DNA of 64,000 nucleotides, taken from assembly GCF_006345805.1 (NCBI RefSeq), contig NC_043005.1:88970001-89034000 (forward strand), written 5' to 3'. Numbering within the stretch: position 1 is the stretch's first letter; each line of letters opens with the position of its first letter. The position numbers and the translations under genes are program-made. This document shows positions 2,462-54,700 of this stretch, piece after piece. This stretch comes from Octopus sinensis (taxonomy: Eukaryota). The notes under the pieces were generated by a model. It was given only the letters and a program-made list of their open reading frames with translations. It was not told the origin of the DNA and did no database searches.

Positions 2462-2522
2462 TTTTATTGATGTACCTGAAGAGAACCAGAATGGGTCGAA
2501 ACATGTGTTGTACGCAATAAAA
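2462..2522 (+). ncRNA. Type I hammerhead ribozyme motif
   Basis: ttttattgatgtac-CTGAAGA(2476)-gaaccagaatgggtc-GAAA-catgtg-TT-gtacgcaataaaa; stems I and II pair, stem III self-complementary. Confidence 0.75.
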
Positions 2523-2724
2523 TCTTTTACACAACCATTTCCTATTTTCTTAATGCTGTTATGCCATCTGTTGGCACGCTACACTCTGAGAACTTTCTGA
2601 TATTACCGATATATCTCTCTCTCTATATATATATATATCTATATATATATCTATATATATCTATATATATATATATATATATATATATATATATATATAT
2701 ATATATATATATATATATATATAT

Positions 2725-48700: not shown

Positions 48701-51700
48701 TATCTCCCTGAATAAGATGGTGTCTATATCCAGATATCACCCTGGATAAGATGGTGTCTATACCCAGATATCACCCTGGATAAGATGGTGTCTATACCCA
48801 GATATCTCCCTGGATAAGATGGTGTCTATACCCAGATATCACCCTGGATAAGATAGTGTCTATACCCAGATATTTCCCTGGATAAGATGGTGTCTATACC
48901 CAGATACCTCCCTGGATAAGATAGTGTCTATACCCAGATATCTCCCTGGATAAAATGGTGTCTATACCCAGATATCTCCCTGGATAAGATGGTATCTATC
49001 TTTGTCTTCGACCTTGTCAACCTTGGGTCTTGTAGGAATTATCCTAAATTCATTCTGCCAGTTGCCATGGTTCTCATCAACTCCTTTGGTATTAGGCATA
49101 ACCCTGCAACCTTCCATTTCCACTTTGATGCCAATTGATGACACCTTCAGGTCCCAACTGTCCCTTATTCTATGATTTCTCTTTTTCAGGCCTGAATTGT
49201 TGACCATTGTAATTGATGGGATTTTGAAGGATGGCAGAGATTTCAGAGCTGTGTCAAAGAGTTCTCATAATTGCTGGTTAGTAATACAGTGACTGGTGGT
49301 TCTAGACCATCTTCATGGAACTTGATTTGGTGGCTTGTAAGTCGTTCTTAATAAGGTATGTCTTGCAATCTTCACCAACTGTTTGGGACTAATTTCACCA
49401 ATGTCAGCTATGAATACTTTTACTGGGGGCTGCCCAAGCCCTGACTTAGATGAGGATCTTCCTTATTTCGCCTCAGTCCACTTGGCCACCATATTTACGG
49501 CAAGAGCCAACAGGAGAACAAACTGATACTTGTCTGGTGTTTTTGACTCTGAAGTGACCAGACGTCTCAAATTCCTGAAGAAATCAAAGATCGGGTGGAC
49601 ACAGAGTGATGGTGCAGTGTAAATTCTGCTTTGCTTATACACATGCATGCAGACACATGCGCACATATGAATAGAATCTTACAACTGAATTGAAAATAGA
49701 ATTTAGGAGAAATGTGTATAAAAAAGACCTTGGTAGACCCTAACCAATTTACATTGATATCCCAGCCTAATTGTTTAAGCTCTCCTCATTGCATACTAAA
49801 TATAAACACACAAATATTACGTTCGTAATGTCCAACATTTGTGTTTCTGCATGTGACCGTGGCATTTATTGCACTGGTGTGTGCATGTGATACTGAGCTT
49901 CTCACGATGGTTGAACACGTGTACACTAATTTAAAGCTGTGGCTGTGAAAACTTTTTATGACATAGTTGTGAGTGTAGGCGTGACTGTTTGGTAAACAGT
50001 TTGCTTCTCAACCACATGGTTCTGGGTTCAGTCCCATTGCTTGGCACCTTAGGTAAGTGTCTTCTATAGCTTCTTGTCGATAAAAGACTTGTGAGTGGAT
50101 TTGGTTGACAGAAACTGAAAGACGTCTGTCATGTTTGTGTATACATATATGTATGTATATATATATATATATATATATATATATAGTTTCACCAGCGATA
50201 ATAATTAATTTTATTTTATCGCAATTTGACTTGTTTATATATATATATATGTATATACATATATATATATGTATATACATATATATATATATGTATATGT
50301 GTGTGTGTGAGTTTATGTGTCTGTGAGTGTGTGTGTGTGTGTGTGTGTAAGTGTGTGTTTGTATTTGTTCCCTACCATTGTATGACAACCGATGTTGGTG
50401 TGTTTACGTTCAGCAAAACGGACCAATAGAATAAGTTCCAGGCTTAATAGAAAAACAATAACTACTGACGTTGATTCGTTCAAGTAGAATTCTTCAAACA
50501 ATGCTCCAGCATGGCCACAGTCTAATGTCTGAAACTTGTAAATGATAAAATATAAAAGATGTTTATGGTCATTAGGGAAATGCTTGTCTATGATGGTTAC
50601 AAAGTCGCAAGCAAAACTTTATTGAGCAATGAGTGAAAAGAAGTTGGTCTAACGTTAAATATTGCAACGCCTGCTTTTTATAAAGTGCAGACGCCATGAA
50701 ATTGTATGGATTCACACAGCAACAATTTCTGAATGCTTCTTTCATATAACATTTCAATGTTTGTATTATTAAAGCTGTTAATCACAATATCTTCTGTGGC
50801 AGCTAAAGCGAAAATAATAACTTTTGGATTATTGAGAAATATTCAATATTCAAGATTTGAAGAGGTTATCTTTACTTCTTTCCATGAACAACTTGCATGT
50901 TTTTCATGATCATGGCAAACAGCTTTATACACACACATACACGCACACTCATGATATATGAACAAGCACACACATATGTAGACATGCACACACATATTTG
51001 TGCATACTTCTATATATGCACTCATATTTTAGTAAGATAACAGAGTAATACAGTTTGTAGGATTGACCGAGAGATAGATAAGAAGAAATAAAATAAAATA
51101 AAGCAAGATAGGATACAATATAGAGGGGAAGTGAAATGAAAGAAAATAAAGTGAAATATAATAAAAGGGAGCAGAGTCGAAAGAGTTTTAATTTTCTGTA
51201 ATTGGTTGGGGGGATATAAAGGATCACAGATTAAAGGATCACGGATATAAATGCTTTAATGGTTCGTGGATATAAAAAGTTTTAAAAGTTTAAGGATATA
51301 TAAAAGGCTTGTGGACATAAAAGTAGACAAGAGATAGGTAGGGAGATGGATAGGCAGGTAGATAACTGGGTTGTTAGATAGATAGACAGACAGATAGATG
51401 GGACAATCTATCTATCTATCTATCTATCTATCTATCTATCTATCTATCTATCTATCTATCTATCTATCTATCTATCTATCTATCTATTTCTCTCTCTCTT
51501 TGTCTCTCTTTCTCTGTGTGTCTCTCTCTCTCCCTCTCTTTATATATATATATATATATATATATATATATATATATATATATATATATATATACATATA
51601 TATATATGTACCAGAGTAAGCACATAAATGTGAAACAAGGTGGAAAAATAGTACTCGAATACTGGAGGTAGAGTAATATGCTTTATTGATAAAGCTTCAA

Positions 51701-54700
51701 GAACATAACAAAAGCTGTTACTCAGAGTTTCACATTCCCGTTCGTCGGAAAGTTTTAGATAAATAGATAGATAGCTTGGTAGTTAGATAGAAAGATAAAC
51801 ATTTTAGCATAGATGTGCGAAGTGACCTACAAAATAACCTTACCTGAGTGGTGATTGAGGTGTGCGTATTGGTTTTATCATACACCCAAGAACTGCACTT
51901 CTGTGTAGTTCGATTTCCATTTTCTGTGGTATTGGAATATATCAAACATTTATCATAAACCACCTCCCCTTCATCCTCACTCTTTGGAATATATTCGTTG
52001 ATCAGTTCTTCATGGATTTCACTTTGGATTTTATACGTGTCGTTGTCGTAACCAGGAATACCACACCTAGGAAAATATACAAAATAGGTTTCTTTGATCT
52101 TTCATTTAAATTTAATTACATCTTCTGTAGTTTTCAGCCTTGTGGGCCTTAACATACATCTGAAAATATTTCGTTTGATGAATTTTATAGACAGAAATAA
52201 GTATTCTTATCCTGCTGCAGAGGTCCGGTGTACTGTCTCTCTCACTTAAGGCGGCTGAATTATACTGAAACACTAGCTGATTCAGAGTCTGCCATGTCAC
52301 TGAATTCTGCATTGTCAACACACATCGTCTCAAAGGGAGAAACGTTTATTCAGGCAAAATCCAACAGCGTGAAACATTATTTACTTTTCAGGTCTGCTAG
52401 AATACACGCATCAGTGATCTGATTCTCACTGCTTTCCATGCTCTGGTTAATTTAATATATAATATACATACGTATGCATATGCATACAAACACACACTCA
52501 CACATCCATATGTATGAATATATATATATGGTAATTTCCACTAATATATATATGTATATCTATCTATCTATCTATCTATCTATCTATCTATCTATCTATC
52601 TATCTATCTATCTATCTATCTATCTATCTATCTATCTATCTATCTATCTATCTATCTATCTATCTATCTATCTATCTATATGTATATATATTTATATATG
52701 AGGTTAATGAGAGACAGAAGATGGAAGATACGAGAATTTCTATTAATCGCTGCAATTGATCCCTGCAATCACTGCATATATATATATGCCACTTCTAAGC
52801 GTCATATATATATATATATATATATATATATATATATATATATCTTATAATTAAGGGCTAAAGAAGGTTATTCTAAAGCCAATACACTGATTTATCTACT
52901 TATAATCCACTTGTTACAGGAAAATTAAAAGGTTTTTTTAATATACTGCCACGCTTTTTGATGGAATCCTTTTCTGTAGAGAAAGGGACTTCATCCTATA
53001 TTGTTAGTAGTAAACTCACTGCTTGTTACAAGGGGACCGGTAACCATTACAATATGTAGCGGCGATAGGTCAACACGTTGTTCTGAGACTGACCAAGGAA
53101 TTTTTATTTTTTATATATAAATGATGTACTTAAATGTAGTTGTGTTTTTAGCTTCTGCTTTTTCCATGATCACATGTGAGTATTTTATTTATATTCCCTC
53201 GTAAGCTCTACTGAAGAAGAATGTATCCTTTATAGAGATTAATTCCGAAATTGATTCAATATAGAGATAACGAAATTTAAATTTTCTAAAGGTTAGTTGC
53301 CCGCTTTCAGTTCAATTTTCCTGTAATAAGTGGATTATAAGTGGATATTGGCTTTAGAATAACCTTCTTTAGCCCTTAATTATAAGATGTTTATACTTCA
53401 ACCGTAAAGGTTTTTTTAATATACTGCCACGCTTTTTGATGGAATCCTTTTCTGTAGAGAAAGGGACTTCATCCTATATTGTTAGTATATATATATATAT
53501 ATATATATATATATATATATATATATATATATATATAGTTAATCCAAACAAGAAAGCACAAAAAAAAACACAACAACGCGAGGACGTGGAACAAATATAG
53601 TTGAATTGGACGCTCAGGAAAGAAGGAAAGAAGGAGAGTATAACGTTTCGAGCGGAGCTCTTCGTCGGAAACATAGGAGAAGGAAAGAGCCAGAGAAGGG
53701 CAGACAGAGGAAAAATAAATCGCCAACGGTACACACGAGGTCACACACACACACACACACACACACACACACACACATACATATATATATATATATATGC
53801 CACTTCTAAGCTTCATATATATATATATTTCTTTTATTCTTTTATTATTTCATTTGTTTCAGTCATTTAAGTGCGGCCATGCTGGAGCACCGCCTTTAGT
53901 TGAACAATTCGACCCTAGGACTTATTCCTTGTATGCCTAGTACTTATTCTATCGGTCTCTATCGGGGACGTAGATGCACCAATATGGCTTATCAAGTGAT
54001 GGTGGAGACAAACACATACACACAAACATACACAGTTGCGGCCAAAATGTTCAGAACGGCATTGTTTTTGTCAGAAAAGTAGGTATAAGTTTTTACTAAA
54101 GTTGTTTTATATTCTATTTTCAAAGACAATAAATACGATATTAATTGGTATTGTCTGAGATTTTGGTGTAATTTGAGTGGATAGTACAAACGTTATGGAT
54201 GATATAGTGATTTACTGCAAAACCCATGGTGGCCAAAATGATCAGAACGGTTGAAAAAATAACAAAATAATCAAAAAGTGACAGAGAATGCTGGAATTAT
54301 TTCATATTTAGTGTGAAGCCCTTTAGCTTCAATCAAAGTTTGACATTTTCGACTGCATGGGGAAATTAAATTTTCAATTTCTTGCTGGGTGATCTTATTC
54401 CATTCTTCCTGAAGGGCATTCCATAATTGCTCGGTTGTTTTAGGATTTCTGGCTTTCAAACGTTCTCCTAGAATATTCCACACATTTTTAATAGGATTGA
54501 GGTCTGGGCTTTGAGCAGGCCAATCCATAACAATAACCTTTTCAGCCTTGAGGAAGTTCATGACCACCTTAACCTTGTGACATGGGGCATTGTCCTGCAT
54601 GAATATGGGTGGTCGCTTAGTTGAATTTCTCAGCACAGGCAAGACATTTACCTTTCTATGTAATCGCAGCAAAGGGCCCACAACATCTCCAGATATCATC

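Follow-up and report, generated by a model that had tools for sequence, protein, structure and literature searches.

Hammerhead motifs of Penelope-like elements at an octopus transporter locus and a Poseidon-type family with a putative tRNA-derived promoter

Results

Type I hammerheads lie scattered in and beside a transporter gene

We analyzed a 64,000-nt stretch of the Octopus sinensis genome (contig NC_043005.1, positions 88,970,001 to 89,034,000, forward strand; hereafter the window, numbered from its first letter) for type I hammerhead ribozyme motifs and the retroelements to which they belong. Taken as a whole, our reading is that the motifs come from Penelope-like elements (PLEs) and that one family, called 30395 after its position, is transcribed by RNA polymerase III from tRNA-type boxes; we consider this probable. 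The window is 35.7% GC and rich in microsatellites, in a genome of 2.72 Gb. Its minus strand carries pieces of a major-facilitator transporter gene (Sugar_tr at 32596–33069 and MFS_1 at 43790–44260, with further likely exons picked by eye near 17.0, 31.8, and 51.9 kb), surrounded by Tc1/mariner, pogo-like, long interspersed element (LINE), and Gypsy-like fragments. The hammerhead motifs are insertions scattered in and beside this gene.

A strict descriptor scan of both strands (CUGANGA, GAAA, UH, stem I of at least 3 bp, stem II of at least 2 bp, palindromic stem III) found eight perfect-core type I hammerheads, compared with a mean of 0.04 in 100 local dinucleotide shuffles (maximum 1; none of the 100 reached 8), which confirms the view of an initial annotation that the motifs are real. 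With one core mismatch allowed, 10 motifs were found against a shuffle mean of 1.5 (0 of 30 shuffles reached 10), and a looser scan requiring only the first inner pair of stem III gave five matches, all still fully palindromic. Seven of the 15 sites listed initially passed the strict scan (2462, 6338, 7664, 11374, 14837, 15753, and 53204); the other eight, which are core variants or decayed copies, were anchored by hand. Six of the 15 are on the minus strand, as are three additional sites at 5940, 28105, and 30121 (the last an inverted partner); the motif at 28105 may be a chance match. Stem III, described initially as a short self-complementary word, is indeed fully palindromic (G-U pairs allowed) at 13 of the 15 sites; it is broken in the window copies at 30395 and 41597, while genome-wide copies of both have CG. 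Stem I arms scored 3.67 of 4 with their own partner (perfect in 9 of 12 family representatives, own pairing being partly by construction) versus 1.79 of 4 with partners from other families (5 of 132 perfect). An Rfam scan of the whole window, dominated by microsatellite matches, showed no hammerhead family among 150 of its 232 rows.

Two exact core patterns alone matched 36,998 times genome-wide (5,532 for 30395 plus 31,466; reversed-pattern controls of both gave 0), that is, 0.87 times per 64 kb. The window is therefore near the genome background, and the "dense array" of the initial annotation is not borne out. The motifs and PLE sequences of the window are the following.

2470–2515, plus strand: type I hammerhead with stem III CATGTG, of an older repeat family (strict scan, genome search)
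2728–3093, plus: decayed PLE endonuclease-region fragment (tblastn with an intact PLE open reading frame [ORF], 27% identity, E 5e-5)
4357–4422, plus: hammerhead of a ~564-bp non-coding unit, with an inverted partial copy upstream; first stem II pair broken
5344–5438, plus: decayed hammerhead-like motif with a 64-nt stem II domain, stem III CAGCTG, and a weak stem I
5889–5946, minus: extra hammerhead (C3U), absent from the initial list; its stem II ends resemble the 4356 family
6337–6425, minus: hammerhead with a 58-nt stem II domain, a relative of the 11374 family
7663–7708, plus: compact hammerhead from a young tandem unit (~477 bp, non-coding)
11374–11463, plus: hammerhead with a 59-nt stem II domain in the 3' untranslated region (UTR) of a Hydra-type PLE (endonuclease C terminus upstream in loci L197, L198, L199, and L205)
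14841–14882, minus: hammerhead, inverted partner of 15757–15798 (one insertion in a TA repeat)
15757–15798, plus: hammerhead in the 3' UTR of a young Hydra-type PLE; of the pair, only this copy is followed by the tail
18164–18261, plus: hammerhead-like motif with a 67-nt stem II domain, of an older family
22903–23659, minus: 3' UTR of a Neptune-type PLE, with a U3-A8 core hammerhead at 22961–23004
23660–24941, no strand: ~1.28-kb insertion splitting the PLE at a TTAA site
24942–25756, minus: C-terminal ORF part (cysteine linker, GIY-YIG) of a young Neptune-type PLE, sharing 98.8% identity with an intact copy of 784 aa
28067–28111, minus: extra perfect-core candidate motif with a stem I of only 3 bp (strict scan)
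29998–30215, minus: inverted partner of the tRNA-headed element, with a ~30-nt tail and a decayed hammerhead (core 30121)
30219–30291, plus: tRNA-derived segment (A box 30226–30236, B box 30269–30280)
30292–30365, plus: (AAT)n/(AAC)n spacer of the pseudo-long terminal repeat (pseudo-LTR)
30366–30499, plus: likely start codon (30366) and first codons of a Poseidon-type ORF, containing hammerhead 30394–30441 (decayed here)
34903–36041, plus: older PLE reverse-transcriptase (RT) fragment (tblastn 44% identity, E 2e-73)
41596–41635, plus: hammerhead with a family-wide A6U core, 3' end of Neptune-type PLEs; stem III broken in this copy
51713–51754, minus: decayed hammerhead (U4C, broken stem I), a relative of the 15753 family with the same tail
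53205–53267, plus: hammerhead of a ~487-bp non-coding unit, tandem and inverted
53636–53674, minus: hammerhead (U4C in part of the family, stem I broken), 3' end of Neptune-type PLEs

The stem II domains of 58–67 nt at 5344–5438, 6337–6425, 11374–11463, and 18164–18261 are kept across copies.

Six of twelve families are the 3' ends of coding PLEs

The 15 listed sites sort into 12 families (roughly ten had been estimated initially), and all are repeated in the genome (11 were traced by DNA or pattern and one through its ORF; 51711 was assigned by eye to the family of 15753). In six families the motif marks the 3' end, or pseudo-LTR, of a coding PLE, located directly downstream of the PLE ORF and left there by 5' truncation; three are non-coding tandem units; and for three older families (2462, 5336, and 18154) no parent element was found in the extended loci. 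Judging from these sequence relationships, the motifs almost certainly originate from PLEs. PLE coding fragments occur three times in the window (2728–3093, 24930–25757, and 34903–36041), exactly as had been claimed. With clade names that rest on motifs from PMC8557442 (cited, like the other articles below, for the portions accessible to us) and a tree without named reference elements, families 22957, 41597, and 53638 are Neptune-type elements with a cysteine linker, 15753 and 11374 are probably Hydra-type, and 30395 is Poseidon-type.

The 22957 motif belongs to the PLE whose ORF ends at 24942, with the 1.28-kb insertion in between; the insertion itself starts like a piggyBac-type end. This family is young: many of its 144 scored matches are 97–100% identical, with open frames of 784 aa and tandem arrays that have one hammerhead per 4.4 kb. 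We had considered 22957 a decayed hammerhead and dropped this idea, as the U3-A8 core is present in 18 of 18 young copies among the matches listed; it is an intact core variant. The PLE of 24942–25756 also has a separate upstream ORF in an overlapping frame (L191, L192; 24,183 first-look candidates). Upstream of the 41597 and 53638 motifs, RT and GIY-YIG coding sequence with a cysteine linker was found (L181, L182, L187, and L193; 8 loci extended). The 15753 and 11374 families run upstream into Hydra-type endonuclease ends, compared with the description in PMC8557442: CxxC-E, N-CxH, and TA flanks were seen, and in L188 the second cysteine of the CxCX5C-like linker is replaced (endonuclease part only). 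Families 53204, 4356, and 7664 consist of units of ~487, ~564, and ~477 bp in partial tandem and inverted arrangement, and no linked ORF was found within 1.5 kb (12 loci each).

Two cores depart from the consensus in much of their families. The 53638 family has C at position 4, a change known from a viroid, in 6 of 12 copies. At position 6, matching copies of the 41597 family have A or T (13,458 copies), with A in only 140 of them, so that U6 is present in 99%; N7 takes all four bases, and this free variation means that U6 has been kept through several subfamilies. A6C is known to shift metal preference (PMC3088659, PMC7151607); A6U was not found in the literature consulted (0 occurrences in the accessible portion of PMC7151607; the available passages of PMC3088659 name A6C, U4C, and U3-A8). 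Both A6U and the 30395 family may be recorded in the supplementary data of PMC4209133 or PMC8557442.

The 30395 family is a Poseidon-type PLE with a tRNA-derived head

In the window, the 30395 family is represented by a head-to-head pair, with the plus copy at 30215–30499, its inverted partner at 29998–30215, and the tail on the partner alone; the window copy has lost G12 and stem III through CpG-type changes. The pseudo-LTR of the family reads stop codon, ~30 nt, tRNA-derived segment with A and B boxes, (AAT)n, ATG, hammerhead, and tail, followed in tandem copies by the rest of the ORF. When the head (30219–30291) was compared with 27 distinct tRNA genes of the same genome, for six amino acids, the best match was tRNA-Arg(TCT), with a score of 57 versus 20 ± 3.5 for shuffled sequence. 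Its A and B boxes score 18.6, which none of 200 shuffles reached; the T stem is broken and both boxes are kept. The initial annotation missed this head, as well as the fixed core variants described above. The (AAT)/(AAC) leader bears what we take to be a resemblance to CAA-rich viral leaders.

The repeat could have been a plain short interspersed element (SINE) with an unidentified partner; this candidate was dropped, since 6 of 30 head-anchored copies run upstream into the end of a PLE ORF. Two such loci, L295 and L309, show a GIY-YIG-type ORF end with the stop codon ~30 nt ahead of the head, and the ORF-end/tRNA junction occurs 633 times (at most one mismatch). Conversely, the head lies downstream in 20 of 30 RT-anchored loci, and the hammerhead directly upstream in 16 of 30 loci anchored at the N terminus (tandem junctions). 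The majority profile of 2,906 nt contains, in order, head, ATG, hammerhead, tail, an ORF of ~824 codons, head, and hammerhead; one stop and one frameshift remain. The hammerhead lies within the first codons, and P0009, a 61% identical homologue, has the same N-terminal peptide. RT motifs and, at the C terminus, an endonuclease motif of the GIY-YIG type follow in one ORF. Pfam matches of the fragments are weak (RVT_1 at E 5e-4, below the cut-off; no hit for the 74-aa endonuclease piece), and homologues with 60–71% identity carry PF00078. The cysteine linker (CX2-5CxxC) is absent from the closest homologues and present in L191, and the tree splits the two groups 99/99; lacking the linker, the element is of the Penelope/Poseidon type.

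The same pseudo-LTR is dispersed as a short form with at least 5,532 cores and the tRNA-derived head at its 5' end. Head-to-tail copies are 233–347 nt long in six of seven measured cases (one, deleted, has 111 nt). They end in the PLE tail, which directly abuts the flank, most often TA (29 of 43); no LINE-partner tail, poly-A, or simple-repeat end is present. Sequencing runs with part of the short element comprised 20 rows from 9 studies under five organism labels, with no RNA run among the matches listed. Relatives with their surrounding DNA were absent from the viral and prokaryote collections and plasmids, and none was found with a single-protein query. A search for tRNA-like heads linked to the other families found none in 465 kb of their loci; the matches near them were unrelated SINEs or stray 30395-family heads.

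Insertions bear a PLE signature and begin near the tRNA segment

From 60 loci taken in genome order, seven were dropped as the same place, leaving 53 insertions. An inverted copy was present upstream in 26 of the 53 and downstream in none, and wherever the partner included the 3' end, the tail was at exactly one end (24 of 24). Upstream inversions and a single-end tail are the PLE signature described in the available text of PMC8557442 and PMC11167929. The head was present on either strand in 33 of the 53.

Of 59 segments that were selected by hammerhead or tail and reach the head, 33 have their end within −17 to +8 of the tRNA start, 8 extend further upstream, and 18 stop inside the head. The spacer before the head nearly repeats the head's first bases in inverted orientation, which accounts for the ends at −14 to −17. 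Many junctions are exact fold-backs with a loop of 2 nt. AC directly precedes the head in 13 of 30 head-anchored copies, and AT in five more. Of six full-length starts that still bear the head, five begin at it. We infer that these ends are most simply explained by an RNA start, common to long and short RNAs, roughly two bases ahead of the tRNA segment.

Runs of four T and a second PLE with A and B boxes

Runs of three T occur 15 times on the sense strand of the 2,906-nt profile, and runs of four (T4) are absent. Over 822 codons, 0 T4 runs were found versus 3.2 expected (P = 95/5000), and three other PLE 3' UTRs have 6, 29, and 5.

An alignment query returned 13 relative loci; the four with long Poseidon-type ORFs, all on metagenome contigs, were used for comparison of T4 runs and boxes, and the other nine were left out. 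Observed versus expected T4 counts are 12 versus 11.2 for L374, 6 versus 5.3 for L375, 9 versus 7.6 for L376, and 1 versus 3.6 for L377. The latter, a distant Poseidon-type PLE, has A and B boxes and then AAT repeats between stop codon and hammerhead (score 18.2; 0 of 200 shuffles); scanning L374 and L376 for boxes gave no A/B boxes. L377 is 39% identical, and the tree does not group it with the 30395 family. The pseudo-LTR features of L377 lie at L377:2760–2986, and a histone-mRNA-like stem-loop lies at 3059–3074, 75 nt behind the hammerhead (Rfam E 0.14, below the cut-off).

Other features of the window

The closest copies (93–98%) of 2300–2600, 5330–5600, and 18090–18350 lie nearby on the same contig, at ~83.8–83.9, 88.2–88.9, and 89.1 Mb; this proximity suggests that the region around the transporter gene has undergone local duplications. 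A 34-bp minisatellite at 48011–48999 has 29 copies that are 93% alike. Near-perfect hairpins at 62241–62367 and 58997–59121, which match miRNA models below the cut-off, are probably fold-back ends of mobile elements. tRNA-headed repeats without hammerheads, of at least three kinds, are found at 41916–41974, 32980–33031, and many loci. A DUF7083 fragment at 36779–37240 probably comes from a Gypsy-like element.

Discussion

The sequence evidence makes it likely that the short 30395 copies derive from polymerase III transcripts. That the coding RNA is a polymerase III product as well is possible and distinctly more doubtful. Marginally more tentative is a proposal for the origin of the arrangement, namely that a PLE captured a tRNA gene in place of its promoter, is transcribed over its whole length by polymerase III, and has a SINE master in every 3' repeat, such capture having apparently happened at least twice among Poseidon-type elements.

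On the polymerase III reading, every pseudo-LTR would initiate transcription, with the RNA beginning at, or immediately upstream of, the A that lies two bases before the tRNA segment. Within a partial tandem, this RNA would continue across the T4-free ORF as far as the following pseudo-LTR; any insertion's 3' pseudo-LTR would yield a short head-hammerhead-tail RNA running into the flank, which could serve as a template because it includes the tail. The PLE protein would begin reverse transcription inside the tail, as described for the anole Poseidon element in the available text of PMC11167929, so that short RNAs would need no defined 3' end and would be copied as SINE-like elements. Such templates would account for the large excess of cores (at least 5,532) over N termini (411 first-look candidates), although part of it comes from ordinary 5' truncation. 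Its stem III being only ACGU, the hammerhead would need a second copy or a protein in order to cut, and its cut would remove the start codon and ~22 codons from the ORF; this could switch a message into a template or silence the RNA.

Several observations weigh against the polymerase III reading or parts of it. RNAs made by polymerase III are uncapped and usually short. Neither Rfam nor ARAGORN called a tRNA on the 30395 heads (with lowered thresholds ARAGORN also calls controls and is uninformative), and Rfam found no tRNA in L377. In L377, two T4 runs 77 and 196 nt behind the hammerhead would stop polymerase III before most of the ORF. Eleven control mobile ORFs of the genome are also T4-depleted (16 versus 24.1), which gives a control-corrected expectation of ~2 for 30395 with P near 0.1, and a dinucleotide shuffle of the test gave 35/500; the control depletion and the shuffle leave the T4 test suggestive only. 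The hairpin formed by the spacer and the head start could also fix 5' ends by fold-back, and one tail-to-tail pair (L270/L271) was seen among 30 tail-anchored loci. The 30395 copies are 82–92% alike and none of those seen is intact, which means that the family may be extinct. Both PLE promoters studied hold introns (PMC2377424 and PMC8557442, as far as accessible), which implies polymerase II, and autonomous partners must use polymerase II according to the available part of PMC10886601.

The strongest alternative is a division of labor in which the tRNA boxes make only the short SINE-like RNA and polymerase II, acting from the same pseudo-LTR, makes the coding RNA as it does in other PLEs. It agrees with the intron-bearing promoters that the accessible text of PMC2377424 and PMC8557442 places in the pseudo-LTR, with the modest T4 depletion after controls, and with the T4 runs directly behind the L377 hammerhead. 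Against it, long and short copies share their start (5 of 6 full-length copies), and T4 is absent over 2.9 kb that include a non-coding part, in contrast to the 3' UTRs of the three other PLEs. On balance, we find it unlikely.

Less likely still is that a SINE head fell once into a PLE 3' UTR and has had no promoter role, the ends resulting from RT stalling or fold-back at the hairpin or from cutting of the tRNA-like fold. The near-inverted spacer, the many exact fold-back junctions, and the fact that inversions by the PLE enzyme occur anywhere along the element favor such a passenger. However, several copies join the flank 2–6 nt before the head without fold-back; a cut at +1 would remove the AC (or AT) that so many head-anchored copies retain; at least 633 copies show that the enzyme can read across the junction; the T stem is broken and both boxes are kept; and boxes occupy the same place in a second, distant PLE.

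As to the motif set as a whole, the initial annotation had envisaged a large population of small, PLE-mobilized, ribozyme-bearing elements; on this view most motifs would be non-autonomous, retrozyme-like elements that replicate through circular RNA. The link to PLEs drawn in that annotation is now directly established, and the form of 53204, 4356, and 7664 (non-coding units of ~480–560 bp in partial tandem) fits animal retrozymes as described in the accessible parts of PMC7229834 and bioRxiv 10.64898/2026.07.22.740005. As a general account it is improbable on the sequences at hand, because PLE ORFs lie upstream of half of the families. Matches arising by chance in DNA rich in AT and microsatellites, for which the eight listed copies that fail the strict scan and the lone motif at 28105 might speak, have a negligible probability and are ruled out as the source of the whole set by the shuffles, by the repetition of every family with its core kept, and by the empty reversed-pattern controls, although chance could apply to 28105 alone.

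Minimal PLE hammerheads with palindromic stem III are already published, and this part of the observation is mostly known biology. According to the available text of PMC4209133, many minimal hammerhead families occur per genome, mostly as single truncated PLE ends, with weak cleavage even as dimers. The motifs found here resemble those in core, short stem I, extra base between positions 9 and 10.1, palindromic stem III, covariant U3-A8, number of families per genome, predominance of single truncated copies, and opposite-strand pairs 100–700 bp apart. They differ from what is described there in that several families have 58–67-nt stem II domains, one has U at A6 in 99% of copies, and its N7 takes all four bases. 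The three non-coding families share with animal non-LTR retrozymes (same two sources), which derive from PLE pseudo-LTRs, non-coding tandem units of a few hundred bases with a type I hammerhead; in contrast to retrozymes, their units lie in short partial tandems and inversions.

Among Penelope/Poseidon elements, the anole element PAc (PMC11167929) and Drosophila virilis Penelope (PMC2377424), in their accessible descriptions, share with 30395 an RT with C-terminal GIY-YIG and no cysteine linker, a hammerhead overlapping the ORF start, an optional 30–40-nt tail, partial tandems, inverted 5' copies, and a promoter in the pseudo-LTR. In contrast, the 30395 pseudo-LTR has a tRNA segment with A and B boxes at the copy start, where the studied promoters are LINE-like, internal, and intron-containing. 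Short repeats with a polymerase III-type promoter followed by a hammerhead are represented by the schistosome Sm-alpha and Sj-alpha repeats, which the available text of PMC6765202 treats as non-coding and without a named autonomous parent; the 30395 module is the pseudo-LTR of a coding PLE, with the parent in hand. The TRIMp3 elements Cassandra, Helenus, and Ajax likewise have a tRNA- or 5S-derived promoter in a terminal repeat, with the cloverleaf lost and the boxes kept. Unlike 30395, an autonomous PLE, all of these are non-autonomous LTR elements whose autonomous partners are expected to lack the polymerase III repeat (PMC10886601, accessible part).

No report joining a tRNA-derived promoter to a PLE was found in our literature search; repeat-database entries were not compared. 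As far as this search shows, the tRNA-headed Poseidon family may be new, and its short form may already be a catalogued SINE. The octopus SINEs OK, OR1, and OR2, attributed to work by Ohshima and Okada in 1994, reportedly have tRNA-Arg-related heads. The short form may be one of them; we know of no hammerhead or PLE link for these SINEs.

The hammerheads themselves bear on an open question, whether PLE hammerheads must cut. The anole Poseidon hammerhead cuts only with protein, insertion in vitro is independent of it, and the PLE protein nicks AT-rich DNA and starts reverse transcription within the RNA at the tail (PMC11167929, as far as accessible). An A6U hammerhead in more than 13,000 copies is relevant here, and the young, intact Neptune-type family, with its 784-aa ORFs and tandem arrays, is natural material for testing the need for cutting.

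In the general view, SINEs depend on a LINE as a separate partner, and polymerase III promoters are, to our knowledge, considered limited to short non-coding elements. With tRNA-type boxes in the terminal repeat of a coding element, a single element would provide promoter, ribozyme, and enzyme together with a SINE of its own. If this is true, it would offer a direct route for the birth of SINEs, bring to three the retroelement classes that can move SINE-like RNA, and provide a test of whether uncapped polymerase III RNA can be translated into retrotransposon protein. A PLE-mobilized SINE would then have been caught together with the element that gave rise to it.

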